From Amphiscolops sp. MND2022 (lineage: Eukaryota): a stretch of 64,000 nt of DNA. The DNA is taken from positions 33,294,001 to 33,358,000 of the forward strand of contig OZ076421.1 in the NCBI GenBank assembly GCA_964187785.1, given 5' to 3'. Of this stretch, positions 187 through 62,786 are shown piece by piece; the first letter of the stretch is position 1; every line of letters begins with the position of its first letter. The notes under the pieces were generated by a model. It was not told the origin of the DNA, ran no database searches, and worked only from the letters and a program-made list of their open reading frames with translations. The translations under genes and the position numbers were made by a program.

Positions 187-871
187 CTTATTCCGGACTC
201 CTTGCATGGGATGTTTCATTGCAGTCTTCGTCAGATTGTCCACGATGTCCTTCCAGTTTGCAATCAGCTCTTAGCATAGAGCAGGAATTGTGGAGAGCTA
301 TAGTTCACATCTGGCCATCGCCTTTAACAACAAGACTCAAGGTCGGCTCGACTAAGGAATCGACAAGCCGCAAAAGAAAACTCACCTGAACGAGGGTAGG
401 CATGTTGCCAATCCATGGTAGTTCTTGACAACCATTGAGAAAGCCTAGCAAGAACTTGACTTGGGAAAAGATGTCAATCTTTCCAAAAACACTGCCCCCA
501 GTTTGGTGAATCAGATGTGGGAGCGACATTGAGCTGAATCGGAAGGGGTATTGTAAGCCTTGCTGATAAAGGGTACATCGATCTAAGGTTTGCACTATCT
601 CCACAGTACATCCAGACACACTGACTACTTTGGGTGTTAAAGAGAGAACTGAAAGGACCCGCGAAATTGAGTTGAAGATGCCACTTGAGGGTTCTGATGT
701 GAGCTTGTACCGACACATGTACACGCGTACCAACGAGGTAGACTTCCAGTATCGGACATAAACTAGCCCGTATATCCCTTTCTTCTCAAATTCGAAAGAG
801 TAGAATCCAGTTGCAGATATACAGCTCGAAATATCGGTCATGGCACAGGAGAATATGTGATAGAATATAGT

Positions 872-949
872 CTGAAAAGGAAAACATGGTATTCCCCAAG
901 TGAAAAGAAAAGTCCTTGGTGTCCTTGAAACTATAAGGAAAGAACCTAC
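872..949 (-). other. Predicted 78-nt phase-0 spliceosomal intron hidden inside ORF 305-1522
   Basis: The minus strand reads ACG|gtaggt...ttccttttcag|ACT. It removes the 26-aa stretch VGSF...FPFQ, which is absent from the paralogues, and they have an intron at the same position. Confidence 0.75.
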
Positions 950-3931
950 CGTTAATTTGGTTGCACCCCAATCGAAAGGGGAAAAGAGTTCCTGGTGGTT
1001 GGCAGTTACCCCCTTTTGGGTCCACAAAGTCTGCAGCAAGGAGACGTTACCACAGTAAGGGACGAATAAGCCGATGAGGGAAATTTGCATCGAAGCTCGA
1101 GTTTCCGTTGGGTTGGTAAATGCTCCAATCCCCGCCATGTGTTCATCGTAGAATGGATACTTGTCTCCAACGTCTACTAATGGTGCATCTATAAATAGGG
1201 GCTTTTCCTTTTCAAGCTCCAGTGGTGTCAGAATGTGTCCGTCTTTACCTCGGACTTCGTGGCTGGTTACCCCTGTGACCTCATTGACTTTTGTCAAGTA
1301 TTCGAACCTCCATCGCTGGTCTTTACGTAGATGGGTTTCGTATCGGAAGAGGCGTATGATTTCCCGGGCTCCCTTTGATTTTAGCGACACATTAGCTTTG
1401 GATAATTGACAGTAGAATTTATGCTTGTTATGGACTGGATCTAAGGGACCTGTGACGAAGGTTTTAGTCCACTTTATGCCATTAAAATACGCCTCCTTCA
1501 TTACCTTTCCGGGTTTCCCCACTACCTTCCTGCGTTTTCGTGGAGGGCTGGGATTGGCGGGACTACTGGTCTGTCCTTGGCATAGTTGAGCTAATGGCTG
1601 GTAGTCATCGACACATTATCCTGGATTGAGGACTGCAGGGATGCTCAACTCAACTAGCACGTTACCAGAGCTAGTTCCTTCTCCAGTCTTGGAAGTTTGT
1701 CCTTGTACTTGTCGAGTGAGATATTCGTCCTCAGAACTTAAGGCTCCACTAGTGTATCCTGTGGTGGAATATCCACTCATGAGAGTCTTGTCACCTGAAC
1801 CTTCTGAAGCGCTACGCCTTCGTGGTAGCTTGGACTTAGATAATCTCGCATTTGAAATACCAAATCTCATGGCTTCATTCATTAATGCTCTCATGGCATG
1901 GATGGACGATAAGACGGATTCATCCGCCAAGGCCCCCAGCATGTTTTGTACCAGGCTTTCAGTGAAAGCAATAACCAGGTGATCCATGGGCAATGCAATG
2001 GGAGTGGTTTCACTAAAACACTGCCTAAGGAGTGTCCGCCCTTTAGCCGACAATTGTCTAGGTTGAGAGACCGTGGGGAGCTCTGATTTAGTACACTCTA
2101 CGTCGCTGGTGTCTCTGAAGACACCTTGGCTGTTTTCAATAGACTCGAAGATGTCAGAGTAGACAGTAGCAGCTTGAATTTGTTTCTGGGTATCGGCTCC
2201 GGCGATGTCAAAAAGATCCCCGATTTCACTGATGTCAGTGGGGAAATAATCCACTCGCTGTGGTTGTCCGCTCGTCTCACTGACTGTGTCAAGTTGCGCC
2301 TGTAGGGTATCTGAAACTTCAGTGGAATCTTCCTGTTCAGAAGGAACAGCTTCAATTCGCTGTGATTCAGATGATTTAGTTGGTACTGTCTCACTTCTTC
2401 CTTCTCCTTCTCAGATGGAGTGGCGGGGCATGTGTCTGGGGTTTGCTCTCCTGTCGCAGAAATATTCACCAACGTCCTCTCGACGTAAGTAGTGAAACTT
2501 TCTTCCGTGGATGGACTGGTGGGATCTGTTCCTGCATGAGTACCAGTGACAGGAGTTTGCGTGTCAACAGCTGTAGCGTTGGCGTGGGGAACAACATAAC
2601 ATGTTCGGTAACTGTGCCATCTGGGTCCGTCTGTGCGTTGGATGAATTCTCAGTAATTCCGAGGTTTTGATCTGAAGACATGTCTAAAACACGACGAATA
2701 TTATCGGTGAACTTCCTGTAAGAACCAATTGCCGCGTTAAAAGTATTCCGGAAGCAGACTAATATGAACACTTGTGAAAACTTGTGTTATTTGGACAGGA
2801 AGTACTCAAACAAAATGAGAGCCCTAATCAAGCCTCAAATTAGTTTGAACCAGAAATTTGAAAATTAAAAGGTCTTGAGACGTACTGACCTGCTTGCAGT
2901 GGTTTGGACTGTTGGATTCAGAATTGACGTTTTGGGATGAAAACTGTATCCACAAATCTGACTGAACAGCTGATTGTTCGCACACTGGAAGGGAAATCCT
3001 GAAGGCTGGAGCCTGGATGTCGATAATCCCAAGAAACGGACGGGATCCGGGCAGATGCAGGGCTGTTCGAGGGCGTGTCCCAAAAAATGAAATGGATGTA
3101 AATTCATAAGAATACAAATAAGCTCGACTGAGAGACTGGATACAAACGTTGACTAAACAACTAGGTAATACTGGTGAGAGAGTATTTGATAAAAATTGAA
3201 TCGAATGGTGAATTAACAATTTGACAAAATGTCGAGATTGGAGTTCGTGGATATACAATTTGGTGTCAAATTTACAATTATTTACAAGTTACGCTATTAT
3301 GTAGATAAAGACTGCCAGCTATATCTGCAATATTTTGCAATATTCTCAAAACTTTGTTATTTTATGCAATTACTCCGTTATTTTATAATTATTTCATTAT
3401 TTTACCATTTTATTTCATTTTTATATTATTTTCAAGGTCATATTATTTTATTATTATAAGAATTTACGGCCTTGAATCGCCATTTTACGAATGAAATCAT
3501 ATTTACGAAATCTGATTGGCCACCACGGGGAGGACGAGACAGCGTGGCCTTCGGACGTATCTTCACCCACTTAAAACCTTCAAGTGGGACAAGAGTGTTA
3601 ATAAACACTCATCATGATGCTTAAGAAGTAAAAGTGGTGTTGAGGACCATGGGTGTCAACAATGCCGCCATCGGCAGTTTCAAAGTGATCAGAGTAACTA
3701 GTTGAAAGAATGTTACCCGGAAAGTTTTGTTATTGAAAAATAATTCAGAAACGAAAAAGAAAATCCGGGAAAACGCAAACCGAGAAACAACGAGACACAG
3801 CGGTCTCACAAAGGAGAGGATCGTCAATATTGCAATTTCAATTAATCAAATCAGTTGCTCCAGAAACGTTGACTTAATTTGAAATTTTTCGCTTCTCCAA
3901 GATTGCCAAAAAACTGTTAAAAGATAGATTT

Positions 3932-4753
3932 ATGTCTGATATCTCTGAGACATTTCCAATGAATTTCCAAGGCGCTGCTCAATCAGAAGGGGCCCCGGCA
4001 ATTATATGCACTTCTAGTGATGAGGAGGAAATGATGGACTCAGACTGTGGGTACTCTGTGGACGATTTGTACTTATCGTCGGAAGAAGAATCAACAGATG
4101 TAGAAATCATGGCTAGATGCATCGAGAGACAGCTAACTGAGCCAATTGCCATTCCCAACCCCGGGACATCAAGTGCGCAAGTTAGGTGTGGGACACCTAA
4201 ACCAAGCTTCCCAAATTTTCCTACATTCTCTCAGCAGTTTTTTAATCTGGGTTCAGGAAATGGACCGGTGGGACAAGATAGCCGAATCAAGGCCAATCAC
4301 CCCATCAACATTTGTAGGGATTTACGCACTATGATCGATACGCCAATGTTGCCTTCCCCAGAAGTCAGAGGGCCGTCCTGTATGCAAGAGACGCCAACTT
4401 GCTCATATTCAACGGACACTGCCTCAATCAAAACAGTTGCGAGCCACTTTGACGGCATGGCTTTATCCGAGTGCGCTGGCCTTGCAGGTTGTTCAGAGTG
4501 CGTAATTTGCGGGAAATCGGTCCAACAAATTCGAGCGGAAACAGTCAATGATTATATCGATAAGACTGTCGTGCCGGGTGAAACCCTTGCGGAGACTGAG
4601 AGGAGGAAAATGGCCTTTCTGGACGGGATGGCTGTAGGCACATATTTACTCATACCAGGGGGAGTGTCGCAGGCAGCCGCCTGCGATGGCAACTGGTACT
4701 CAGTAGCCTTTGGCTACGACAGAGTTTTGCCGGGAACGATCCCCCTCAACTAA
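3932..4753 (+). CDS. ORF-X (273 aa), retroelement accessory protein of unknown function: acidic N-terminus with a SIM-like motif, Cys cluster, C-terminus inside the LTR
   Basis: Uninterrupted ORF containing AIICTSSDEEE and CAGLAGCSECVICGK. Its last 28 codons lie inside the LTR and are conserved in the LTR at 59920. Confidence 0.7.
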   Translation: MSDISETFPMNFQGAAQSEGAPAIICTSSDEEEMMDSDCGYSVDDLYLSSEEESTDVEIMARCIERQLTEPIAIPNPGTSSAQVRCGTPKPSFPNFPTFSQQFFNLGSGNGPVGQDSRIKANHPINICRDLRTMIDTPMLPSPEVRGPSCMQETPTCSYSTDTASIKTVASHFDGMALSECAGLAGCSECVICGKSVQQIRAETVNDYIDKTVVPGETLAETERRKMAFLDGMAVGTYLLIPGGVSQAAACDGNWYSVAFGYDRVLPGTIPLN

Positions 4754-6198
4754 AGAAGATCAAAGATCGAGCGCGACAATCAGGCTCAGAAATTAAAGTA
4801 AAAAGAGAACGGAACTTTTACGACAAACTACTTTGTATTGTTATTTCAAACATGTAGCTATATCTATTTAGTTACTTTGTTATTTTAGTTACTTTTCAAT
4901 TTGTAAAATTGATCAAATACAATAATAATTGGACATCAAGGCGTACAGGTAGAGGAAACGAGTTCAAATGTTTCTTCCCCTGTCGCTGAGGACGGCCAGT
5001 CCGATTATTAAATTGACCAATCACAGCACAGTAGCTGGTTAATTCATTCATTCTAGTATGGCGCTGCTTTGTATAATCGCCGTACTCGGCCTTTGTTCGT
5101 CTGTTTATTTAATAGAGATTAAAGGACTGCTAGTCCAACTTGCCAAGCACCGCCTTTAATGCATCAATATATTGGTCCATTCATGTTGAATTGGACATTG
5201 AGGACGTAAGTCTTCGGCGCTAATATAGGTGCAATTATATTCAAGGAGTGTTGCTATTTTTTATTCCCCGGACTTACAGGGCTAAATACCATGCAATTTG
5301 TTAGTTGACACGAAAGTTTAAACATACATGTAAAACATGTAGCGTTGCATTGTTGTTATGTTGAGGACGTTGCGTCCACATGAACAATTCAAGCCGACAG
5401 GCTTTGATGTATATTTTTAGACCATGATGTTATAACTTGATGCTATTTATAGCTCATTGATTCTAAAAATAGTCCCATGATGCTCCAAATTGGAGCTGTC
5501 ACCCTAGCAAGGGTATATAAACAAGGTACTCGTGGTCCTTAAGACGCAATTTTGAGAATCTTCACCGAAAGCAGTATTTTATCATTTATACACTGTGAAC
5601 AAGTACTATCAACTATTTGTTGGTAAAGTTTATGGGGATAATTCAAATATTTGCCCAATAGAAACATTTATGCTTTCCACAAGAAGACAGAAAGCTAAAG
5701 CTAGGAAATCGAGAGAATTAGACATTTTGTCTGATATAGATAACGGAGACATAATGCTAGGGAATTCAGGAGAAAATCCCGTAGAGAGAGAGTTAGCAGA
5801 TGCGATTGAACAGTCCTCTGTCCAAGGAGACTACGAGGCAAATGAGTACCGAGGGAACAATTATAGTTTCACACAAGAAAAAGAACCGCTTAGACAAAAT
5901 GGATTTAGACAATCTATTGAGACTTTTACGAACGAAATCAATCTTAGATTGTCTCAAGAAATGGATTCCATGATGTCCATGGTCCATAACCAGATAAACA
6001 GAGCGATTAGCACTGCTATATGAGAATAGTCATTCCAGAGATTCAAAACATTGTTAGCTCAATGTCGTCTTCGGGAAATAGGGACACTGAGGCCAGTATG
6101 TCCCCAAGTAGTCAGGACAATAGGGAAAACAAAAATATTGAAAAAGGACTCACGGTCCGTTGGTGATTTAAGAGACGCCACCGGAAGTGGTCACTACA
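4665..6198 (+). mobile_element. 3' LTR of a Gypsy element whose pol lies left of the window
   Basis: Preceded by a polypurine tract AGGGGGAG (4657-4664). Starts TGTCGCAGGCAGCCGCCTGCGATGG, nearly identical to the LTR start at 59920. Contains CCAAT, TATATAAA (~5514) and the gag N-terminus. The right end (..CTACA at 6198) is inferred, and no PBS follows it. Confidence 0.7.
5670..6198 (+). pseudogene. gag: Gag N-terminal segment encoded within the LTR (disrupted)
   Basis: MLSTRRQKAKARKSRELDILSDIDNGDIMLG aligns with MPTTRKQKKARKSREAETLSDIENLDIMLG at 61068. A stop lies at 6021-6023. Confidence 0.75.
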
Positions 6199-6474
6199 GT
6201 ATGTTTCAAGATGTGGTAATAAACGCGTTGCGTCTGTCAGATACTGGTTTGTAGAAGTGTCGTGTTTCCCCAAAAATTACATATGCCGTTCAATGTGATT
6301 AACAGTAAAAAAATCAGAACATCAGGTGCTGGAAAGCTATGCTGAGGTTGAACATTAGTGAGTTGATCTAAGTATTCGCAATAATCAACACTTTTTTGAT
6401 AGAACAAACAGTTTTTTGATGGAAAAAATTTTTAGTTAGGGAAAGGTTGTTGCTTTAGAATAGGGACTCAAGTG

Positions 6475-7410
6475 AGAATAATTCCGCTGATTTCACTCGG
6501 CGGTTGTTTGAATTCTATCTCAAAATTTTTCCACAGATTTTACTCAGTGGTTGTTTGAATTTAACGTAGAATACTTCCGCTGATTTCACTCGGCGGTTGT
6601 TTAAATTCTAACTAAGAATATTTCCGCTGAATGCGCTCAGCAGTTGTTCAAATTCTATTTTAGAATATTCCCAATGATTTTACTAAGTGATTGTTTAATT
6701 TCTATCTTTGAATAAGTCCACTAATTTTACTCAGTAGTTGTTTAATTTTTACCTTAGAATAATTTCGCTGATTTTACGCGGTAGTTGCTAAAATTCTATC
6801 ATAGAATAACTCCACTGATTTTAGTCAGTGGTTGTTGAAAGTTTTACTTGGATAATCTCCAACTAATGCAGAAGGGAAAACTGACTAACGTCACATAAGG
6901 TTACCTAAAAAATTTGGACTAACTTATCTTGTAATTTTGTGCTTTATTTAAAATGTCTTAAGTCTATTCGGGAATCAAGTGAAAGAGAGAGACATTAAAG
7001 AAACAAAACGTGTCAGTTTAAACTCGTACTAATTATATATATTTTTCATTCTGAGCTAAACTGAAACGTTTTCAAAATGAAAATATAGAGCTTCCAGTTC
7101 TCTCTGTAAAATTTATAAACTTTTTCTGATGAGACTGATAAAGCTACTTTGCTGAAGAAATAAAATAGATTGTAAAATCGCAACTGATTTAAGTAAAGAA
7201 TGGAATAGGTACTGCTATGCCTAGAAGAAGATTTAGACCTAACATCAGCCTTTCCTTCAACAATTCAACATAATTGCTCCCTCTGACTTTTTCCGTAAAC
7301 AGACAGCTCATTTACGTACACTGCCGAGACTTTACTCACGCAAATTCCGTTTTTCGCACGTACACGCAAGGCAGTTCCTTTTCAGTAGAACATGTAGCTT
7401 TTGAGACTTT
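6475..7410 (+). repeat. Dispersed ~930-bp non-coding repeat, copy A, starting with about 8 degenerate ~47-bp tandem units
   Basis: Unit AGAATAATTCCGCTGATTTCACTCGGCGGTTGTTTGAATTCTATCTC. The whole block recurs at ~30805-31690 in the same orientation. Confidence 0.8.
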
Positions 7411-7559
7411 CTTACTCACTTCGAATCAATAATGGAATAGTCCCCTGAAATTTTTTCACAAAATGCTAAAGCAGATGAACTGACTAATAGTGACTGATAG
7501 TGATAGAACTGTCCCTTAAAAAGAGAAAACAGAAAAAAGTATCCATGCGTGTGACAAAC

Positions 7560-7576
7560 TGGTGCGACCAGTGAGG
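7560..7576 (+). promoter_or_regulatory. Candidate primer-binding site of the env-bearing Gypsy element
   Basis: GTGTGACA-AAC-TGGTGCGACCAGTGAGG about 1 kb upstream of gag. No matching second LTR was found. Confidence 0.3.
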
Positions 7577-8576
7577 CACCTTTTTCTCTTTTAACAGAAA
7601 AGCAAATAAGCAATCGGTTAACTACCTAATACACTTTTTTTATTTCTGACTTTCTTTTTCCTCCTACTGCCACAATATTTAGCTTCATTGGCTCAAAAAA
7701 TCATAAAACTACTAGTAATTACTCCAACAGAATCTTTCCAACTTAACAGCGTTCTCGATAGTTTATGCATCACTCAACATAGTCCCCTCAATTTACAAAA
7801 TAGTTGTTAGATATGATTGATTTTTACGAGAAACCCATTAGATTACATTCAGTCCTAAACAAGGATGCAACTAATTTTTAACTCTGTATTCAAACCATCA
7901 GTGGGGAAATTCAATCGAGTCCAGACGGACACATATTAAGCAAAAGCCCGTCTAGGTCTTCTCGGACACTGATTTAAGGCCGTAAGCCCAGTGGGTGTCC
8001 TAGAAACTATGTACCATACCGAGGTGGAATCCTAGATCTCTAGTCAAAGTACCCTAGTGTTTGCATGATAGTCATCGGGGCTCCGCGCACTTAATCTTGA
8101 GGACAAGAATGACTCCTTATGTTATTTGGTTGTATTTCTCTTCCAAAAGCCACGGTCATCCAGTGGATAAATTACTTTCTGGATTGACTGTTCACTCCAT
8201 AGTTTCCTTACCTTGAATTCGGAGGATTGGTATACCCCGAACTACCCTATTACCAAGTATCTCACAGTAGTATCTTACCAAGTAACAATAGTGGGATTTG
8301 TAAGTATCCCCTAACTTTGCGACTGAAATATTGAGCTCGCGGAACGTACTTCTCCTAAGTTGAGACGTCCGATGTTCAGTTTTTTATAACATACTACTGA
8401 GCATATGCTAAGTCAGACCTGCCTAATACTTATCATATTTAGAACTCTTGCAAGACCAACTTTTACCCTAGTCCTTTGTGGTTATTCACAGAGACCTGGA
8501 GTATCATACATCATTGAACCTTTAATTTATTAATTGTTGCTTTGTTTTCTATCTCTAATAAATTCAATAGCACACA

Positions 8577-21627: not shown

Positions 21628-22147
21628 GTAGTCCATTAGTGCGTGTGCGAGACCTGCAACTTATTTTGAGTCAGTATCAACTGAGATAATCCAATGTCCA
21701 GGTTGGTGAGGTCGGAGGCTGTGGATTTCGATTTGAATTGTAGAAGCTGTCTCTTTCCAGGCAATAAAAAGGATTTCAAGAAGCGTTTCGAGGTGACGCC
21801 AGAGGCATTTTAACTGGATTTTAAACATCGTTTATGTCGAAAAGAGAGTGTAGGGTTAGCTACGAGTGTTATATCCAATAAATAAAGTAAGTTACTTCAT
21901 TTTTTGGATATAACACTCGTAGCTAACTCTCTTGTCGACATAAACGATGTTTAAACTCCAGTTAAAATGCCTCTGGCGTCACCTAGAAACGCTTCTTGAA
22001 ATCCTTTTTATTGCCTGGAAAGAGACAGCTCCTACAAGGCAAATAGAAATCCACAGCCTCCGACCTCACCAACCTGGACATTGCTTTATCTCAGTTGATA
22101 CTGACTCACATGAAGTTGAAGGTCTCGCACACGCACTAAAGGACTAC
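21628..22147. repeat. Long inverted repeat, ~250-bp arms with a 25-nt spacer
   Basis: 21628-21878 is the reverse complement of 21904-22147, apart from scattered mismatches and small indels. Confidence 0.95.
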
Positions 22148-22620: not shown

Positions 22621-23290
22621 ATGAAACGTCACAACGTCCAATGCCGAACCTCGCTCTAGCGTTGCAAAAAAACTGCAAGTTACTCATTTCGACTGCGGCG
22701 AGCGAAATGACCCAAAAAAACTCTACGCGTTGAATCAAGTAGAGCAATGCAATGTGGCACCTGAAGATTTAGAAGTAAATCGTGCGAGCGTAACGTTATA
22801 CACTAAACATTTCTGCCGCACTATCAACGCCACTATGTGCCATGTGATACATCACAGTGAAAAATGGCATTGTGGTCATTATGACCACTCCAGTATGTCA
22901 ATCCTACACAACGGAATCACTAGCTGTCTTTCCGGGTCACCCGAAACTTGTAAAGCTATGGGTGAAGGCCGAGAAGTCATAATCCATGGCCAATCCCTCA
23001 AATTTACGAAAGGCAGGAAACAAGTACAGACAAGGCACGCAAAATATGGAAATGGTTGGGACGGAAAACTTGATCTTGATACCAGTAACGAGTGCAAGAG
23101 TGGTAGATGGATCAAACGCGAAATGTTCGAATCTCATATGCAAGACGCCGATTTGTCAGTTTAAAAACCCGCGACGGGGATGTCCTCACAGCTTTTCAGA
23201 TGATTCTCCCTTGCCCTCTTGAGCAACTTGGCTGCAAAACAACGTCATTGGACCCGTACGCCTATACATGGGCAGAACCCGATAACTGCG
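22621..23290 (+). pseudogene. env: env-like glycoprotein, 5' part (class III viral fusogen-like)
   Basis: THFDC, INATMC..KWHCGHYDH, PETCK, NECKSGRW and LPCPLEQLGCKTTSLDPYAYTWAEPDNC give a Cys/Trp pattern resembling chuvirus G / herpes gB-type proteins. Confidence 0.7.
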
Positions 23291-26200: not shown

Positions 26201-27553
26201 AGTCAAGAGTTTTTAGCGAAACCATTTCTTCTTGCTTGCCCAAACGTTCGTCTCTTCTTTTCGGCGATTCATTGTGATCACTTGAACTTTGTTTGCTCGA
26301 AGTCTGCTCTGTTTGAATTTGCTTCACAGTTCTCATCATTGAACAATTTTCAACGCTTTTTTGGTTCGAGCGCCAATGTGATCCAACAATGAATCGCCGA
26401 AAAGAAGAGACGAACGTTTCTGGCCAGTTCCACATCCATTCTGCGATTAGATTTTTCGAGGTTCCTTTGTTTGCATTGCTTTCAACATTTGTCATATTTG
26501 AGTCTTCCTGTGCATCACGTTTGATAGTTTTGTCTATCAGTGTTCGGTAACGATCCGCAGTGCCGAGCACCGAATTCAGGGCGGCGTAAAGTTTGGTCAA
26601 CTGAAGGGATCAAGCAGCCGTTACATTTGGTTCGCCGACCCGGACATCATCGATTGGGCGGACATCATCAGTTTGGCGCGGACATCTCGTCGGTGGACCA
26701 AATGTAACGGCTGCTTGATCCCTTCAGTTGACCAAACTTCACGCCGCCCTGAATTCGGTGCTCGGCACTGCGGATCGTTACCGAACACTGCTTGCTTCTT
26801 AGATTAAAAGGACTGTATCTTGACTTAGTAGGATCCAATAATCTCGAATTGCACTTCTTCCTTGTCTCTTAACACGTCCAATCTCCACAAGTTGAGAGTA
26901 ACTAACTTAATCGCCCTAAGTCTTTGGCGAAAAGTCGAAAAGAGGTGAAGAAATGAATTGAGAATTGAAATGGTCCTAAGACCCAACTTGAATACAGCTT
27001 TCCAATCAGTTTGTGCTTAACTAGTTATGGTATACATATCGTTTACAATTCTTCGATAAATATAAGTCAAAATATGAAGTATAAATAAATGACAATTAGG
27101 TGAATTATTAAAGTTATTGGCTATGTAAACAAACCATAGTGTGGGTCTAGCATGTTGGTTAGGTGGGCTCTGAAGAATGTTTACACAATGTAAATATCAT
27201 CAATTGCAACAGAGTTACATTCTAATGTGGTCATAATGGTAAATAGCAATGTTTACATTATTGGCACCATGACCTTGAATATCACACATATGAGGGGTAA
27301 AGGTGGTTATATAGGGTGGATGACCTTGAAACTGGGCCGGTGTGTCCGTGTTAGGTACTTGCACATGTGTGCCAAGTTTCATGGCTCTATGAATAATAGT
27401 CTTAGAGAAAACCCATTTGGGGGGGGGTTTGACGAAAATTGACGATCGACTTTTCTTCAAGTTTTCATCTAAGTTTCTAAGAGTTTAAGTCTTGTTTCTC
27501 AATCAGCACGTTCTGAATTGAATTTCTTTGCCGGCTGATGACTGGCGCCAACA
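23291..27553 (-). mobile_element. Non-autonomous BEL/Pao-like LTR element (4263 bp) inserted in env
   Basis: Direct repeats at 23291-24146 and 26703-27553 with TG..CA ends, and a 5-bp TSD CTGCG (23286-90 and 27554-58). On the minus strand the LTR starts TGTTGGCGC like the BEL LTR at 48097, is preceded by GGGCCGGCAA and is followed by TTTGGT. No RT or integrase motifs. Confidence 0.8.
24420..26600 (-). CDS. Internal ORFs of the non-autonomous element (527 aa, then a stop, then 198 aa in the same frame); unknown product
   Basis: ORF track entries 25017-26600 and 24420-25016 abut. The block DKTIKRDAQEDSNMTNVESNANKGTSKNLIAEWMWNWPETFV occurs twice. Confidence 0.45.
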
Positions 27554-30300: not shown

Positions 30301-30804
30301 CAAATGAAAATTTCAATCACTTACTGTGGTAATTTAAAATCTAAAGCTAAACATTGATTAATTGAATGCAAAAGAGGCTACCCAGGCACTCCAGCAGAAA
30401 TGCTGAACTGGCTTTATACGGCGTGCACAGGCTGGAGCTTCATTCTTTCCGCAAAACCGGCAGAGTTTAGACTCAAAATAAGCTCTCGTCTTCCTTCACT
30501 TCTCTTGCTCTTCTCTTTTTTTGCTCCAACTCTCCCTCGTCTCTTATCTTCCCTCTTTTGTGTTGTTTCTTCCTTGGATTTGAAAAGGTTTTTCTTATTC
30601 TACCCCTTCTCTTGCTTTGGCTCTCATCACAGAAACTTTCTCTTGTCCCCAAAACATCCTGAGTTATACTTCTCGCAACTGAATTTTCTTTCTTGGAAAT
30701 TTTTCTTCACTTCTATTTGGTCCTCGATTTGTTGAGTCGAAATTTATTTATACATTTTTTGTGGAGATTTCTACTTCTCATTTTTTCTAACTAGAATTCT
30801 AAAT

Positions 30805-31690
30805 TAAAATAATTCCACTGATTTCACTCAGCGGTTGTTTAAATTCTAACTGAGAATAATTCCGCTGATTTCACTCGGCGATTGTTTGAATTCTAACTTA
30901 GAATAGTTCTGCTGATTTTACTCAGTGCTCGTTTAAATTTAAACGTAGAATAATTCCGCTGAGTGGCTCAAACTCAGCATTTGTTTAAGTTCCATCTTGG
31001 AATAATTCCGTTGATTTTACTCAGTAGTTGTTTATATTATAACTTAAAACAATTCCGCTGATTTTACTCACTGGTTGTTAAAATACTATCTTAGAATAGT
31101 TCCAACGATTTCACTCAGTGGTTGTTAAAGTTTTAACTTAGATAAATTCCCACTAATGCCGAAGCAAAAAACTGATAAACGTTACATAAGCTCACCTAAA
31201 GTAATTTCGACTAACTTATCTTGTAATTTTGTGTTTTGTTTGAAAAGTCTTAAGGTTATTTTGATATCAACTGAATAGAGACAATAAAGAAACAAAACTT
31301 GTCAGTTTGAATTAGTAATGTTTTTAATATTTTTTTATTCAAAGCTATACCAAAACGTTTTCAAAATGAAAATGTAAAGCTTCCAATTCTATCTGTATGT
31401 TTTATACATTTATTCTGATGAGACTGATAAAGCCACTTTGCTGAAGAAACAAAAAAGTTTGAAAAATCGCACCTGAAGTATGGAAAGAATGGAATAGGTA
31501 CAGCTATGCCAAGAAACATTTTCAGACTTAACATCAGTCTCCCTCTAATATGTCAACATATATGCTACCTCTAACTTTTTCCGTAAACAGACAGCTCATT
31601 TACGTACACTGCCGTGCACTTACTCAGGCCATATCCTTTGTTCGCAAGTACACGCAAGGCAATTCATTTTCCGTATAAACTTCTGAGACT
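30805..31690 (+). repeat. Dispersed repeat copy B (47-bp tandem units plus a unique tail)
   Basis: Colinear with 6475-7410. Confidence 0.8.
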
Positions 31691-32050
31691 TTATAATCCT
31701 GTTCTGGAATGTTTTACCAACAAAAATTTTCCCAAGCACTGTCAAACAATTTCTTTAAGTCTTGATTTCTTATGACGAATTTGTTTTGATTTTTCTGGCT
31801 CAAACACGATCATCGATTTGAAATTTAATTATTGTACTCTTATCCTGCAGAAAGTTTTCTACTTTGCAATCAATCGATAAATATTTCAACATGAATGTCT
31901 TCGGACGACTTTTGATAGACCTTTTTTCCCAGGCGCAACTCCATGTTCGGAACAGATGACTTCTTGCACTTTTTGCGAAGGTCCCATTGGATGATGTCGT
32001 TGCTCTGTTCATTTTTGAATATGGCCCCAGTCACAGGTTGTGGATATTCT

Positions 32051-34175
32051 TGTTACGACTATTTACCCTGGTAGTTTCATGAGTAGTCGCAGTGGTTTTA
32101 GTTTTAAATGGAGTTGAGGTTGCATTTTCCGGAACGTTTTCGGACTCAGAGTCAGTTTCATCGGAAGCTGTTATCACGGTTTGTGTTCTAGTTGTAGGGG
32201 CTATTAGTCTTAACACCTCCTTTTGGTTTTCAGCTAAGATTTTAGTAAGGTCAGACATTATTTCTTTCCTCAGCGAGGATTTGATTTCTTCTAGATTTTC
32301 AGTAAGTACTCTAGGAGATTTGCTCGTTCCCGCTACGGGATTTAGGTTCTGGCTATTCTCAGGTAATGGGGTTTCAATTTCAGTGGAAACTAGTTCTTCG
32401 ACAGATTTTCTTTTCTGGCTTTCAGTAGTCATTTTCAGCAAGAGAGAGAGAGGAGTAGTTTCTTTGAAAAATTCTAATTCTCCAAAGAAAATTGATTTTC
32501 TGAAAACGAGGTTTTAACATAGCAGAAAAAGCACTGATTCAATTATTTTACAAATTCCTGGGTATATATACTTTCACAGCATCATTGGTTCCTCACCTAA
32601 AAATTCCTAGGAATCCCTAAAATCGGTTTTGTTCATTAAAAATGCTTAATCACCCTTATTATTTCAACACTTCAATTAATTGTTCATACTTTAATATTCC
32701 TGGTCACGGCTCCTTTACGGAGTGCCTTGTTGAAATCATTTTTGTTCAACAACATCATTTCCGGTTTGATCGCGGAAAAGGCGGCAAAACAAAAGTTTAG
32801 TTGAATTTCTATCAAGAGAAGCACGCTGGCGTGAACAATGATTCATCCCAAAACTAGTGAAAATCATCTGTTCGCGGCAAAAGATTGACAAGCAGAATTG
32901 ACTACGGAAATATCTCGGACTGATTTTGGATTAATGTAGTGCATTATTTGAAAAGGGACAAATGATGCTGGAAAATGGTCAATACAGGTCAAGGACTGAA
33001 CTAGCAGATAACATGGCACAATATAGTTCTAAACTAATTTTAAATGTGTTGAAACATAATGGCCAGATCATTTAGTTCAATGAACATAACGTAATAAACA
33101 TACAAAACACTTTTTCCAAAATGAAGGAAAGCACCTTTTATTTGAACAATTACCTTGCCTTAACCTGCAGCACGATCATTTCGATTAGTTATAAAAAACG
33201 GAGAAAATTCGGAGGAGTATTATATAAACATTATGATATTTTGAATATTCCGACACGATTCCGTATGGCATGGGGAGTATTTCGGTATATTAAAATAATT
33301 TTGATCTTGCAACTTTTTCCTTAGTCGTTCTACACGTATTAACATTAGGTATAACCTCATTTATTTACAATTTGCTCCGTAAGCGCTCCGTGCGTATTAA
33401 GATTAGGTATAGCTTCATTGCTCTACAATTTGCTCCGTAAGCGCTCCGTGCATATTAAGATTAGGTATAGCAGGCTTGCTGTCAACGGAGCAAGAACGGA
33501 TTGATAAGCCATTCTTAAATCATTTTTAGTGACGTCACTAGAATAATTCTCACTAGCTTGAGCGCAAATATGCTGGTTTTAGATGTAACGCTATTGGTCC
33601 AAAAAATTAGAAAGACCAGTGCTTTACTTGTTTGAGCGACGCTGTCATAACGTTTTAAGAGCTTACTCAAATTACTTGACTGCGATTTGAGTGGGTTTTA
33701 ACAGCTACTTCAACTACTGGAAACAATTCCATTATGCTATTTTGTGTTCTTTTCATTTTACATTGTATGTATTCCGTTGGGATCGCGGAATTAAATAACG
33801 TTTTTAATGTTTTCATTCTAATGTGGAAGAGGAAACGAATGATCCCAGAGTTAAGAATGTTTTGGTTTTGTAGTTTAGATTGGTATAGAATTTTCAGCAG
33901 ACGAAAATGGAAGTAAGAAAAAAAACCGCGTATGAAAACATTAAACCGGAAGTTTCGTTTTGTCCAAAAATCACTTTTGGATATTTTACGTTGCGCTTCC
34001 GTTTGATTAAAATCCCTTTTGCTTCGATATTAGTTCGTGCTACAGTTTAAGTAAAAGTTAGTAGTTAGTTAAAGTTTTACTTAGTTACGTCCAGCTCACT
34101 CATGGCCTCGTCCTTTGGCGAATTTCGGGATTCCTCCACAGCAAGAAAAATCCCGACCGGGAGCGGGTCGTGACA
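32051..34175 (-). repeat. 3' LTR (2125 bp)
   Basis: Colinear with 45132-47091 and contains ~170 bp missing from the 5' LTR. It encodes the gag N-terminus (ATG 32432) and the ORF-X tail (stop 34096). Confidence 0.95.
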
Positions 34176-34770
34176 GGGCGCCTCTATAGTTTGTTGGCCA
34201 GGGTCTGGGGCAGAGTGGGATTTCCCACGTAATAAGCACGGGCTGCTTTCGTGCTCTTCTGATTCTCGTCGAGGTTAATGAATTTCCTCTCCCGGCGGTA
34301 CAGTAGTAGTCTTCTGTCATTGATAGCCCATGAGCCTCCTCTATTTCTTGGATGGAAGGTTCGTCTAAATCATTCAACTTCTCTGACTTTGAAGGAGGAG
34401 CATATTCCTTTTCGTTCGTGGTGTCTGTAAGTACGGGGGAACGTGTCAGTTAGGGCATTTCCCGGGACGAATCCGGGTCTTCGTAACAATCAGAGTTTTT
34501 TTTCTGATGTGATTCGACGACAAAAGCTTCTTCCGGGTCAGACTCGAATGTCGACGATAATTCTTGAGTGGAATCAAGGTCCGCCTCACTTCCCCGCCAT
34601 ACTTCTACAGAGGAATCACTTAGATTAAGTCTCCCCACCCTGTTTACGGGCGGAGTTTTGAACGGGGTATTGTATCTGTGGTTCTCTTCATCCGAGGAGA
34701 TGTCGATGACAATGGCATAGTTGTCCGTTTTGCTTTTGGCGGATTTTTATCTGAGTTTTGAAAATTCAAT
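34096..34770 (-). pseudogene. ORF-X homologue (frameshifted) with a SIM-like motif; ends inside the LTR
   Basis: (L/M)NFQ...AIVIDISSDEE compares with MNFQ...AIICTSSDEEE at 3932. The region is acidic, and its last ~26 codons lie inside the LTR. Confidence 0.55.
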
Positions 34771-41800: not shown

Positions 41801-44111
41801 CGTATTGGGCACACTGGTCTGCTTTGATGACAGTGTCGAGGTATTCCCACATGAAGCTCGAGAATGCTGACAAGGCCCTACAAAGTCCTTGGGCTAGCCT
41901 ACGATAGGCAAACGTTCTACTAGCAAAATTAAATGCAAGGAGTTCTACTGACCTTTGATCCGCCATTTGGAGACAGTGGTAGGCTTGTGAGCAGTCGAGT
42001 TTGCAGAACAACTGTTTCCCCGCTAGGTGTGGTGCAGCATCTGAGAGGGTGCTGATGGGGTGGTTGTTGTTTATGTAGTCGTCTGAGGTGAGGGCGTTGA
42101 TCTTCCGTAAGTCACCTAGGAGCCGCAATTTGTCGTTGGGTTTGCGTTGCGCAAAAATGGGGCGAGCATATTTCAAAAATGGGAGGGTTGTGATGATCCC
42201 ATATTTGTGCATCAGTGCTAGCTCTACTGTGAGGTCGTTTTTGAGGTTGATGGGTACCGGTAGACTCTGCGTGTATACTGGTTTGTCATTTTTGGGAGTT
42301 AGGCAGACCTTGAACTGGGTGTTCATTCTGATGTCTAGCCGGTGGCGTGCGCAGATGTCGTTGAAATCGACTATGATGGACTCCAGATTTTCACGATCCT
42401 CTCCCGTTATTAACGAATCATTCCATTTGAACATTGAGAGGAATTGGGATCTGGATTTTTCGTCTTGTTTGGTTTCCAGTTCTTCTAATTTTTGTAGTCC
42501 CCGTAGTTCTCGCAGAAGGCGCTGCTGGATAGGTGTGTGTTCCGGTTCATCTCCGGGATTTTCGGGAGTAGGGAACCAGAATTTTTCTTCTGTTTGTTCT
42601 GGGGAATCAATTTGCATTAGTGCATTTACGCACGCAACAACATCGTCGTGTTCGGTGAGTAGATTGAGGGCTGCTATATCTACTGCTCGTATCAATTTCG
42701 TTTCCTCAGGTTTCAGTATTTGTAGCTCTGCTAGTTTCGTGTGTGGCGTTATTGTATAGGGGAACTCTGTGGTGTTCGCTATTTTTATCGCCACTCGTTT
42801 GTCTCGTGCTGTTGTTATTGCTGGGGCTACCACAAGTTTTGCATTTTCGTCAAACTGTGGTGTCCCAGTTGTCCCAGTTATTGGGTGATCGTTACTTACA
42901 GTAATGGACGCGTGGATGATCCGTGTGGCCTGTGCTGGAATGGTGTGTTTTTCTTCCGTCTTGATGGTGATGGGTTTGGGGTTGCACTTTTGCATTTCAT
43001 CCTTTAGAGCTAGGGTGATTTGTATTTGAGAGAAGTCTATTGTTCCTTGTGCAGTATCTAGGATTGCGGAATGTTTCCGGAAAAATGCTGGACCGATGAT
43101 CGGGTAGGATGTTTTGGTCATGATGATGAAGGTCTCTTCGAACGTGTAGTCGCAGATTTTGAACTTCAAGGTGTATGTCGCGCGAGCTTTTTCGAGTTCG
43201 GTGTTGGCATATTGTATTCTGAAAGTGGCGGAGGGGCCTTTGCAATTATGGCTGCATTGGTTTCGTTTTGTATCTTGTCTGCATCCTTTTCGCTGATGAC
43301 GTTGATGTCGGCACCCGAATCGACTAGTGCATCGATTCTGGTGTTTTTGAAGTCAAGGGGTATGAAAAGCATTCTTCTCTTCTTCTTGAGAGTAATTGCT
43401 GACATCAACGGAAAGTAGTCGTCATCTTTGGCATGTTGTATGAATTCCTTTATGACGTTGAGGTCATAGGGCAGTTGTTGTGGGCATTCTGTTACTTCTC
43501 CATTTTCGTGGTGATTTTTCTGTGTTGGTAGTTTGGGTGCTGTTTTTGGAGGTGATGCTGTAGGATAGGTTTTTCCTCGTTGTTCTCTTTCTTGTTGTGC
43601 CCATATCGTTTTATCCTCGATGCAGATGATGTTCTCTGCATCTATCGGTGTTGACGTGGTGGTGACGGGTACTGTCGGGGACGGTGTTGTCATTTTTAGG
43701 TTTGGTGACGGCGGCGATGGTAAATTTGTAATCTCTGTGGATTGGGCTTGAGGGTTTGGGACCTGGATTTTGAAAGAGAGTTTATTTGTGTCATAGATGG
43801 TTGGTTCGTCTATAGTCTCTGTCATATATGTAAATGCGCTCGGTTCTTTTATTCTGGCAGAGGTCTTTTGAGTGTCGCATAATTATCGGGTGACTCCGTT
43901 ATCCATTGGGGTAGTGGTGTTGGGTCCTTTGGGTGTCTGGCATTGTGTCTAAGTATCATGCCTACGTTCCAGCGACGTTGCCAGTCCTGGGTTGATTCCT
44001 CGTTGCTTTCTGTGAAAAAATCCTCTTCATATCTATTTGGGGGGTCATCTATCGTGTACGCCTTGCGTCTACCGTTCCCCCGAAGCGGAGGCGCGGCATT
44101 CTTGGTTTTTT
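38803..44111 (-). pseudogene. pol: Gypsy pol (a few frameshifts and stops)
   Basis: LVDSGA (PR), LDCSQAYH and YVDD (RT), LMTDAS (RH), HPG..CPDC / DVFSRY / TDKGSQF (INT), and WTGPY. Confidence 0.95.
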
Positions 44112-54000: not shown

Positions 54001-54163
54001 TTTCGGTCACGCCGTCAATAAATGTTCTCAAATATAGATCTCTTGCCTTGAGTCATGATCCAAATCGCAATAGTTTGAAATCTATCTTTGAGTTCCTTCA
54101 ATCTTCTTAATTCGAACTCTTTCTTGAGTTTCTCCGTTGTAGCTTGAAAGCTACCCCGAAACA
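48097..54163 (+). mobile_element. BEL/Pao LTR retrotransposon, degenerate, with internal deletions (6067 bp)
   Basis: 543-bp LTRs at 48097-48639 and 53621-54163, TSD TCGAG, PBS TGGTGACCTCGACGTGAT (tRNA-Trp type) at 48641-48658, and GGCCGGCGGGA before the 3' LTR. Confidence 0.95.
48654..53030 (+). pseudogene. BEL/Pao gag-pol
   Basis: VPSFSGEYTQWVSFWDQF, CMNCLGRHFVADC, CRTCNGRHHTSLH, LLVSGSQTSF, ADVAKMY, WVDD, FCDASE, GLDFAGP, GGIWDAAVKS, and LWKQWSFEY..LQPRGKW. Confidence 0.92.
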
Positions 54164-59919: not shown

Positions 59920-60936
59920 TGTCGCAGGCTGCCGCTTGCGATGGGACACGAATCACAACGACTACTAACGAACAAGAAGCCGTACCGGGCACTCTACCCA
60001 CATTTTAGGAGAATTATTCAAAACTTTCAGTAAAACTCACTGTTGGTTTATTACATTCATTATGTATTCGGATTGAATATTAGTCTGATTAATACCCGTG
60101 TTAGAATTCAAACGGTGATGATTATGTTTATATGATGAATTGTTTAGCAGTGACGTAATGTAATAAAGGCAAGTGTAAAGCTTAAAGGAAACGAGTTCAA
60201 GTGAACGAAACTCCAATTCCGGAGACGTCACTTGAGCTCATTTCATTAGCCAATCAGAACGCTCTATCCTGCTGTGCATTATACTGTCATATTTGTTTGG
60301 CCGTATACGGCCACTTGACGCTATACTTTATTTTGTAAGCGAACCAAAGGCAAATGGCCGGATTAGGCCATTCCAACTATTAGCTTTTGTAATTGTTTAA
60401 TTTGAGTATGCGTGTTATTTAAAGTCATGTAGGATTATATTTGTATTTAGAAGGCGCTAATGAGGCTATTTAAACCCAATTGATGTAGTTGTGACCACCA
60501 GTCATAAAACTCTAAATACTAGTCCAGCGGACTAAACCGGTCACTTTAATTGGATGGTACCTTTGTCAAATGGCCGAATTGGGCCGCGCTCACTTTTTAT
60601 TAGTGCATATAATTAGAGTTGCTACCTGATGAATTAGCCTGCGTGTGCAGGCACGTGCCTTAGATATCTCACATACCTGTTGACACAAATATTACTTTGA
60701 AGTGTCTGAACATGTATTTGCCTTGATGTTAATTGTTACGGGAATGCGGACTAAACCGTCCCCCGTACTTTGAAGCCATCATGAGTATGTAATTGAGTGC
60801 ATTCCTCAGGAATTCTTCCGACCCTAAATTCCTGAATCGCTTTGATGCAATAGCTATTTTCCAATCCTCGTAAAATCTCACGATCCTTTAGAGTATGTAA
60901 ACATTTCAATAATATGTGGAAAATGTGAGTGTCACA

Positions 60937-60974
60937 CCTCAGGAGGTATATATACATATACCTCCCTTCTGAGG
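60937..60974 (+). promoter_or_regulatory. TATA-like element within an imperfect inverted repeat, ~120 nt upstream of the gag ATG
   Basis: CCTCAGGAGGTATAT-ATAC-ATATACCTCC(CTT)CTGAGG. TATA-like motifs also sit 120-160 nt upstream of gag in the other two LTR families. Confidence 0.45.
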
Positions 60975-61067
60975 GGACACAATTTGCTTTCTTTCCATAA
61001 CGTTCAGTTCATTGATATTACCAGTTTTCCGAACTAATTCAATATTAACCTCGGACTTTCTTTCTAA

Positions 61068-62786
61068 ATGCCTACTACTAGGAAACAGAAGAAAGCAAGG
61101 AAATCTAGAGAAGCAGAGACGCTATCAGACATTGAGAATTTGGATATTATGCTCGGAGGAAACCACTTTGATAGAAATGAGAGGAGTGAAAGTATGTATA
61201 GTAATCAGGCCGGTAGACCAGAAAGCTTATTTGAAGACGAACTTGAAAATGAGAATGAGAATGAGTTCCCAAACCCAGGAAATAATGGACCTAGCCCAAA
61301 TACCGAATTAGGCCAAAATTCAATTAGGGAGAGTTCAAGTGTTGAGATCAATAGACTGTCGAGCGAGTTAAATTCCCGTATATCTCGAGAAATGGACGAA
61401 ATGATGAACAGCGTCAGTGTTCAGATTCAAAGGGCAATAAATGAAGCGATCAGTAGTCAAATTTTGCCTCAAATCCAAAACGCAGTTATGGCCGGGTCTG
61501 GACAGTTGACCAAAGGGAGATGGAACGTTCCGGCCGAGAGACCAGAAGGATATTCCGAAGTGCTGCAAAACTTAGAACCTAGGAATAATTCTAAGAGTAA
61601 GCAGGCCAATGACCGCCCCAAAGACGGATTCACGAGCACGATCCCTCGTGCTTACGACATGGTGACAGGAGACAACGAATCTCCACTTCAAGTTCCCGAG
61701 TTTCTCACGGGACGAGTCTCATCCAGAAACCATCTCGACAGGTCCTATGAGGACATCAACCATGACACGACGATCCCAGCGCAAGAGAGAAATGCTCCGG
61801 CTGCTCAAACCGACCCTATTACTCGACTGGCAGATGTCTTGACAACGATGCAGAATAGGCCGACAGCCCAACAACTCACTATACGCCCAGTCAATTCCAA
61901 CACAATGACTTTTGACGGCAAGAGTGAAAAATTCGAACTGTTTGAGGACCTGTTCCATACGATGATCAAGATGCAACCGGAAATGACGGAACAGATGAAA
62001 ATAAATCACTTCCACTCATTGCTGAGGAAGAATGCTCTCCAAACCTTCCTGAACATCAGCTCGAGTAAAAGACAGACTTTAGAGGACGTATTGGTCATAT
62101 TCAGACGAAAATACGTCAAGCCCGAATCACAAGCGACTGCCAAACATAAATGGCACCGTCTAGTCTTTGATCCCAACACGATGAAACTGCCAGATTTCCT
62201 TGAAGAATTAAATCAAGGGGCAGAAAAAGCATTCGGGGATCACGCGCAAAAAATGATTGACAGTTTGCTCTACGCAAAACCGCCACCAAAACTGAAGCGG
62301 TCTATAAATATGGCCAGACTCGAAAATGGCTCTTATGACGAAATAGTTGCTCATTTAGAGAGAGAGTTAGAACTAAATGCCCTAGAGGAATCAGACGACC
62401 TACCAATGGCCACAATGACCTCCTCGACAACAAAATCCAAGACTCCTCTAACTACTGGGCAAATGTCGGACATCACTTGCAACTATTGCAAGGAGAAGGG
62501 CCATATGGTCAAAGACTGTGAAAAATTGAAGAAGAAAAAGGAAAAAGATGCCCAACAAGGCAAACAGACTCAGAAAAAGACGTATCCGGAGTGTGGCACT
62601 TGTGGTAAAAAGAACCACCCGGAAGAAAGATGCTGGCAAGGCGCTGGTGCGCATCTCAAACCCAAACGCACCAGACCAGATGATGCCAATGACGGTAAGC
62701 CCAATTCAAAAGCGCAGAAACCGCAAAACAAGTCAACATCTTCAAACTCACAATCCTCATCTTCTAATGATGAGTCAAAAAACTAA
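61068..62786 (+). CDS. gag: Gag (572 aa) with two zinc knuckles; first 197 codons inside the LTR
   Basis: FDGKSEKFELFEDLF, CNYCKEKGHMVKDC and CGTCGKKNHPEERC, with no interruption. Confidence 0.95.
   Translation: MPTTRKQKKARKSREAETLSDIENLDIMLGGNHFDRNERSESMYSNQAGRPESLFEDELENENENEFPNPGNNGPSPNTELGQNSIRESSSVEINRLSSELNSRISREMDEMMNSVSVQIQRAINEAISSQILPQIQNAVMAGSGQLTKGRWNVPAERPEGYSEVLQNLEPRNNSKSKQANDRPKDGFTSTIPRAYDMVTGDNESPLQVPEFLTGRVSSRNHLDRSYEDINHDTTIPAQERNAPAAQTDPITRLADVLTTMQNRPTAQQLTIRPVNSNTMTFDGKSEKFELFEDLFHTMIKMQPEMTEQMKINHFHSLLRKNALQTFLNISSSKRQTLEDVLVIFRRKYVKPESQATAKHKWHRLVFDPNTMKLPDFLEELNQGAEKAFGDHAQKMIDSLLYAKPPPKLKRSINMARLENGSYDEIVAHLERELELNALEESDDLPMATMTSSTTKSKTPLTTGQMSDITCNYCKEKGHMVKDCEKLKKKKEKDAQQGKQTQKKTYPECGTCGKKNHPEERCWQGAGAHLKPKRTRPDDANDGKPNSKAQKPQNKSTSSNSQSSSSNDESKN

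Follow-up and report, generated by a model that had tools for sequence, protein, structure and literature searches.

ORF-X is a real, constrained coding gene at the 3′ end of an LTR retrotransposon, and its last 29 codons double as the flank of the purine tract and the start of the LTR. By sequence comparison, its protein family is new, and the place it occupies in the element is of a known kind. We analysed this gene in a window of 64 kb (the whole stretch of DNA considered here), which is a nest of LTR retrotransposons within a 1.07-Gb genome. Our preferred reading, to which we assign a probability of about 45%, is that ORF-X may act as a SUMO-engaging regulator of the element's own transcription that is expressed internally, like herpesviral IE2.

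A constrained gene that runs into the LTR

The focal element is of the Ty3/Gypsy type and spans ~15.5 kb, with ORF-X as its last sense ORF. Its 5′ LTR is found outside the window, between 9.26 and 7.72 kb ahead of the first position; the LTR pair is 94.5% identical over about 1.53 kb and has TG...CA ends, and a 5-bp target-site duplication flanks the element. As originally predicted, the LTR begins inside the 273-aa ORF at 3932–4753: the partner LTR and the target-site duplication place its start at 4665, and everything in ORF-X from base two of codon 245 onwards is LTR sequence. Related copies of the element show the domain order protease, RT, RNase H, integrase (Pfam), as in Ty3/Gypsy LTR retrotransposons. 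The focal pol shares 71% DNA identity with lineage C; since it is split into several pieces, the focal copy is decaying. RT cores of lineages A, C and D are 89–98% identical to one another, and the RT of lineage B is 83–86% identical to those of the other lineages.

The LTR at 59920 encodes SQAAACDG-x13-PGTLP-xx-stop, because the 3′ LTR of its element overlaps an orthologue of ORF-X outside the window; the three synonymous differences from the ORF-X tail that had been named (GCA/GCT, GCC/GCT and GGC/GGG) are correct. The gag frame of lineages A, B and C opens within the LTR and continues across the primer-binding site. With a gag start and an ORF tail inside the LTR, coding sequence is therefore present at both LTR ends. 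A purine-rich tract is absent before the 3′ LTR of lineage C, where a C/G-rich stretch encodes A-P-A-V instead, and also of lineage B, where GCGCCC precedes the 3′ LTR; the missing tract notwithstanding, young copies of lineage C are numerous and nearly identical.

Table 1 Features of ORF-X, its element and related elements in the window
Feature	Position	Strand	Remarks
Antisense gene pieces	308..2649	-	Between pol and ORF-X; continues upstream of window
Conserved non-coding motifs	3238..3520	.	Between ORF-X and antisense gene; candidate internal promoter
In-frame N-terminal extension starting KIAKK	3899..3931	+	18 synonymous vs 1 non-synonymous differences
Candidate near-cognate start ATT	3902-3904	+	Context C-A-A-R-ATH-G-C; putative start use
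ORF-X	3932..4753	+	273 aa from first ATG; last 89 nt in 3′ LTR
SIM-like motif 1	4001..4030	+	Residues 24-33, then serines and acidic run; degenerate here (Thr27)
Second hydrophobic-SS-acidic repeat (46-53) and reverse-type SIM-like stretch (51-60)	4067..4111	+	
Cys128 and [ST]P-x-SPP proline-directed phosphosite-like cluster	4313..4372	+	Putative function
Conserved C-terminal domain	4445..4690	+	His172, C190-x-x-C193, helical hairpin (197-211, 219-235), LTR-encoded SQAAACDG with Cys251
Purine tract	4657..4664	+	Directly 5′ of 3′ LTR; also codes P-G-G of ORF-X
Focal 3′ LTR	4665..6198	+	1534 bp; opens with ORF-X tail, closes with gag N-terminal part (ATG at 5670)
gag starts in LTRs	5670-6198 (+), 61068-61486, 32048-32432 (-)		
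ORF-Y	34096..34770	-	Lineage B; same position as ORF-X; ends in own LTR (34175 onward)
Lineage-C 5′ LTR	59920..61486	+	LTR pair of that element 99.4% identical

ORF-X orthologues in three lineages (A, C and D) show 31–52% identity, versus the 89–98% of RT, and that of the element at 59920 matches ORF-X with 27.5% identity over residues 48–271 (E 2e-17). By this comparison ORF-X appears far more divergent than RT, as for a host-facing protein. Genome searches with ORF-X proteins returned at least 141–150 matches each from 5,937–8,099 first-look candidates, figures that are not copy numbers, and public sequence collections contained 65, 203 and 558 matches to ORF-X relatives. Neither a name nor a Pfam domain occurs among the public-collection matches listed, and none of the 10 divergent clusters checked contains a named member; three of these 10 lie on contigs of 1–4 kb, one with a JGI member, and may come from other hosts. 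ORF-X has no Pfam family at E 0.1, and divergent members gave only sub-cut-off, mutually unrelated Pfam matches. A search of PDB sequences with the ORF-X profile returned one match (E 2.6), the ESM Atlas no usable match to residues 165–273, and tblastn against phages no match. Fold searches of PDB and BFVD with a low-confidence model yielded nothing at E 0.001 (best Z 5.7, a generic helical hairpin); empty searches with so poor a model are no evidence of a new fold. In the literature searched, from which subscription journals were mostly absent, no title or abstract start describes a protein of the ORF-X type, and the TE catalogues of acoel genome papers could already list these elements.

We determined the selection acting on ORF-X from 103 loci, of which 81 had an unbroken frame (by pattern) and 70, in 15 subfamilies, were kept; dropped loci had no in-frame KIAKK-type motif, one was rearranged and one had a shifted tail. 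Between subfamilies, dN/dS is 0.13–0.18 in the 3 of 105 pairs with dS under 1.5, the remaining pairs being saturated, and within nine subfamilies pooled pN/pS is 0.06–0.41. Selection across copies is thus purifying and not near neutrality, in agreement with the constraint originally proposed. Ascertainment by protein similarity and from unbroken frames only biases dN/dS downwards, but can produce neither saturated synonymous sites nor codon periodicity. By region, in a hand-picked set of 15 disjoint pairs drawn from 30 of the 70 loci, pN/pS is 0.12 for the SIM-like segment, 0.27 for the linker and 0.19 for residues 171–244, and no region has a value near or above 1.

The LTR-encoded C-terminus was claimed to be under protein-level constraint, and this holds beyond chance: in the same 15 pairs, pN/pS of the LTR part is 0.20, and leaving out the first 11 nt gives 0.19 (Fisher P about 1e-30), and its mismatch rates by codon position are 0.076, 0.069 and 0.255. 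Two control segments (150 nt after the stop and 150 nt before KIAKK) are flat at 0.16–0.19 with no codon periodicity, and frame-breaking indels predominate in them (30 of 38 and 38 of 47). Conservation at the nucleotide level, imposed by the LTR end and the purine tract with the ORF or its tail incidental, would account for the scarcity of synonymous changes at the LTR tip, where pS in the first nine LTR codons is 0.15 compared with about 0.4 elsewhere; DNA-level constraint therefore acts there too. As the explanation of the tail it is extremely improbable, since codon-periodic divergence and a pN/pS of 0.19–0.22 persist further into the LTR and the controls are aperiodic, and for ORF-X as a whole it is refuted by the subfamily and pair results.

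The window holds several further features. A dUTPase-like segment (weak Pfam match to Herpes_ORF11, E 0.04) lies between protease and RT at 42700–43121 (-). A further large element occupies 6470–31692, with repeats at 6510–7410 and 30794–31692 that are 79% identical and contain 47-nt tandem units; within it, a cysteine-rich ORF piece at 22835–23164 may be env-like and has no Pfam match. A BEL/Pao-type element at 48097–54164 (DUF1759 at 48705–49403; 544-bp repeats, 92% identical) adjoins the 5′ LTR of the lineage-B element, and long inverted repeats are located at 21628–22147 (222 nt, 94%) and 26538–26790 (102 nt, 97%).

SIM-like motifs and the C-terminal domain

We surveyed 137 near-full-length relatives (of 384 proteins) together with the window copy, grouped into 22 clusters at 60% identity, for a strict SIM core, [VI]-[VI]-x-[VIL] or [VI]-x-[VI]-[VIL], with an adjacent Ser/acidic run. 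Across the clusters, residues 24–31 form an island of 0.57 mean identity, compared with 0.21 and 0.25 in the flanks. The strict forward pattern occurs in 11 of the 22 clusters (2% of shuffles), the reverse pattern in 6 (5% of shuffles) and a forward or reverse pattern in 18. Conservation among intact copies is partial: 101 of 138 proteins carry the strict form, but 9 of 22 clusters, the window copy among them, fail even a relaxed forward pattern. The two N-terminal motifs from which a phospho-regulated SIM had been proposed, AIICTSSDEEE in ORF-X and AIVIDISSDEE in ORF-Y, both exist and are the sole matches to their pattern in the six frames of the window. The proposal stands for the conserved family-wide island, which by its sequence fits the phospho-regulated SIM pattern, but not for the copy in the window, whose AIICTSSDEEE is a degenerate private variant that fails the forward patterns; Thr27 occurs in 1 of 22 clusters, and this copy matches only the reverse-type pattern, at residue 57. 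Residues 1–50 of the low-confidence ORF-X model have a pLDDT of 43–46 and no secondary structure. The host genome has SUMO and Piwi-domain genes. The first exon of host SUMO shares 83% and 80% identity with its counterparts in two convolutid acoels, so the host is probably an acoel flatworm-like animal.

The steadiest residues of the motif are Tyr26 (17 of 22 clusters) and two serines (22 and 20 of 22), and its most invariant part, Y-[IL]-S-S-[DE], goes beyond what a SIM requires. In lineage D, the hydrophobic core is lost at the motif and a reverse-type motif occurs further on. The near-invariant Tyr-SS and core loss in one lineage make other partners of an acidic motif possible. The motifs could then be acidic activation or docking motifs for another host factor, e.g. 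a general transcription factor or an elongation factor, and might work together with the antisense zinc-finger protein or tether integration. The Tyr at motif position 3, the paired serines and the lost core are joined on this side by the repetition of the hydrophobic-SS-acidic units and by the antisense gene, which is arranged divergently and matches a C2H2 zinc finger weakly (Pfam E 0.002, below cut-off). We nevertheless regard this explanation as doubtful, because the commonest form of the motif fits the SIM pattern exactly, a reverse-type pattern is present in the lineage without the core, and the core of lineage B is canonical, with Asp instead of Tyr.

Lineage B contributes a second protein. 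ORF-Y, of about 220 codons, enters its LTR in the same codon phase as ORF-X; its copy in the window has two in-frame stops, 7 of 20 loci are unbroken, and pN/pS is 0.06–0.40 in 21 pairs. This ORF had been described as a homologue of ORF-X that likewise ends in its LTR. It does end in the LTR, but homology is not detectable beyond the N-terminal motifs: ORF-Y and ORF-X gave no tblastn match, and the ORF-X profile scored at best 1.8 bits on ORF-Y, compared with 4.8 bits for the best of 280 shuffles. All that the two share is a KIAK-type start and the SIM-like motif. That two unalignable, constrained proteins both keep the motif is the best argument for the motif as the functional core.

Downstream of the motifs, conserved positions of the middle region include C128 (19 of 22 clusters), P138 (21), S140 (20) and P141 (21). 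Just before the [ST]P-x-SPP cluster, at 4322–4357, many members carry L-x-P-[IVLM]-x-[DE], more weakly in lineage A, which we take to resemble the PP2A-B56 docking motif.

The C-terminal domain and the LTR-encoded residues are the most conserved parts of the protein (identity 0.42 and 0.87). A CxxCxxC cluster had been suggested here as a metal-binding site; this is wrong because its first Cys, C187, is present in only 3 of 22 clusters, and the real feature is CxxC (C190 in 22 of 22 clusters, C193 in 20) with His172 (19) and the LTR-encoded Cys251 (22). These Cys/His residues could form a zinc site, and the constraint on the LTR part might be explained by such a site, as it would be completed by C251. 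The predicted model (mean pLDDT 53, pTM 0.25) contains a confident helical hairpin at 197–235, and the LTR-encoded tail is under pLDDT 50. The prominence of this domain, which all three lineages sampled carry, also suits a role in replication or in the particle (RNA export, packaging, reverse transcription) exerted through C-terminal metal binding, with the N-terminal motifs merely controlling the stability or localisation of ORF-X. We judge such a role improbable: the constrained ORF of lineage B has the N-terminal motifs and no detectable C-terminal domain, the motif part therefore being what all lineages share, and no conserved basic RNA-binding stretch occurs except in the N-terminal extension.

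Putative non-AUG start and internal promoter

An I-A-K-K stretch lies in frame 5–13 codons before the first ATG in all four lineages. Of 135 loci examined, 115 could be anchored on the SIM frame, and a search of the DNA in any frame found the motif in 104 of these, in 99 of the 104 in frame. ATT, ATA or ATC serves as the Ile codon in 95 of 97 cases, with A at -3 in 96 of 97 and C at -4 in 85 of 97; G at +4 was imposed by the search pattern. No in-frame Met was seen upstream of the candidate start, and in-frame stops occur as near as two codons before the Lys that precedes the Ile codon. In one copy, ATG replaces the Ile codon and is followed by an in-frame stop. AUU, AUA and AUC can initiate translation, helped by a purine at -3 and G at +4 (PMC5666671). 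These features suggest that initiation is probably leaky and uses two starts, the near-cognate AUH at 3902 and the first AUG. The alternative to a non-AUG start is a transcription-start motif that merely stays in frame.

Two further explanations were rejected. Splicing into KIAKK fails as a general explanation, because in 12 loci the stretch from the upstream in-frame stop to the Ile codon contains no AG. Subfamilies lacking the downstream ATG did not hold up either: among 16 further loci, 15 had the motif and 15 of 15 kept the Met. Met-less copies are private changes, and the downstream ATG is kept at the subfamily level.

In all four lineages, pol and ORF-X are separated by a long antisense gene; it is broken into ORFs with splice-donor-like ends and includes the weak zinc-finger match. 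An origin from a hAT transposase, a resemblance noted by eye, was dropped when Pfam gave no support, and a piece of the gene searched in the ESM Atlas returned only scores under 0.9. The intergenic span between this gene and ORF-X measures 650 nt, and its conserved motifs sit 340–690 nt upstream of ORF-X. They comprise (i) a 13–15 nt motif at 3238–3250 that is identical in 14 of 15 subfamilies, (ii) a CGCCATTTT-type motif at 3477–3486 and (iii) a putative reverse CCAAT box at 3512–3520, found 339–387 nt upstream of ORF-X in 13 of 15 subfamilies. From this arrangement we infer an internal promoter between ORF-X and the antisense gene that is perhaps bidirectional. On the antisense strand, the motif at 3238–3250 follows a pyrimidine-rich AG in most subfamilies and resembles a splice acceptor; as the start of an antisense ORF it was rejected for want of a conserved frame.

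Proposed function and comparison with known systems

In the regulator model that we favour, ORF-X would be translated from a subgenomic RNA driven by an internal promoter shared with the divergent antisense gene, with a longer form starting at the near-cognate AUH codon and a shorter one at the first AUG. The product would be a mostly disordered motif scaffold that combines one to three acidic SIM-like motifs and CK2-type serines with the proline-directed phosphosite cluster and a small Cys/His metal-binding helical domain. ORF-X would bind SUMO or SUMOylated nuclear proteins, and this engagement would raise or tune transcription of the element in the manner of herpesviral immediate-early transactivators.

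Drosophila piRNA silencing requires SUMO (10.1101/533091), and the original prediction read ORF-X as a possible anti-silencing factor. As such, ORF-X would act at its own loci, either by competing for the SUMO-dependent steps of heterochromatin formation that piRNAs guide or by removing those steps. We consider this unlikely. No region of ORF-X has the elevated pN/pS, near or above 1, that would speak for it, no ligase, protease or DNA-binding domain is recognised, and no evident sequence-targeting part exists in ORF-X, unless this function comes from the antisense zinc-finger protein; family specificity is a property of known TE anti-silencing proteins, VANC among them (PMC6719617). By analogy, a SIM does not specifically indicate anti-silencing, HCMV IE2, the closest of the characterised cases considered, being a transactivator. 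A more elaborate version appears less likely still: a cassette resembling those of complex retroviruses, in which a bidirectional promoter would yield a zinc-finger protein from a spliced antisense RNA and a multi-SIM protein initiated at a non-AUG codon, which would jointly target element loci and block SUMO-dependent piRNA silencing, which would explain the thousands of copies of the clade.

Extra ORFs in LTR retrotransposons are known, almost all of them without a function, and it is mainly for plant DNA transposons that proteins countering silencing have been documented (PMC6719617). The ORF-X family offers a testable animal candidate, with a sharp SIM-like island, a host SUMO and natural variants as controls. 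The same stretch of DNA serves as primer tract, integration end and coding sequence, and the gene has a likely conserved non-AUG start in a retroelement.

In position, ORF-X recalls the additional ORFs, antisense ones included, that plant Retand elements carry between pol and 3′ LTR (PMC11963269) and the extra ORFs, ORF3s, at the same place in bdelloid rotifers (PMC5408684). The elements share the order gag-PR-RT-RNase H-integrase, a long region from pol to LTR and an antisense gene of unknown function. Here, unlike in Retand and the rotifer elements, a second gene, in sense orientation, runs into the LTR and has SIM-like motifs and a probable non-AUG start; in Pfam, ORF-X matches no TRP28, env, GDSL or DEDDy family.

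VANC of Arabidopsis VANDAL DNA transposons, the best-documented TE anti-silencing protein, is, like ORF-X, a TE-encoded accessory protein that evolves fast between families (PMC6719617). VANC belongs to another TE class and kingdom and has no Pfam similarity to ORF-X.

Accessory genes of complex retroviruses overlap U3, among them HIV nef, MMTV sag and foamy virus tas/bet. ORF-X differs from these by residing in a Ty3/Gypsy element with no env recognised in the region, and no similarity of sequence or fold was found; like them, it is a 3′-terminal, putatively regulatory ORF that extends into the LTR and is probably translated from a subgenomic RNA, and an antisense gene lies close by.

The closest parallel may be the phospho-SIM of HCMV IE2, a transactivator with a CIVI core in which adjacent CK2-phosphorylated serines raise SUMO affinity 8-fold (10.1101/655282), and phospho-SIMs are likewise described in PML, PIAS1 and Daxx (PMC4276917). 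Unlike IE2, which has S-D-S, ORF-X has S-S, together with a near-invariant Tyr in its core, and the likeness does not imply sequence homology. ORF-X resembles the phospho-SIMs of IE2, PML, PIAS and Daxx in its four-residue hydrophobic core, followed by serines and acidic residues; in those proteins the motif lies in a disordered region.
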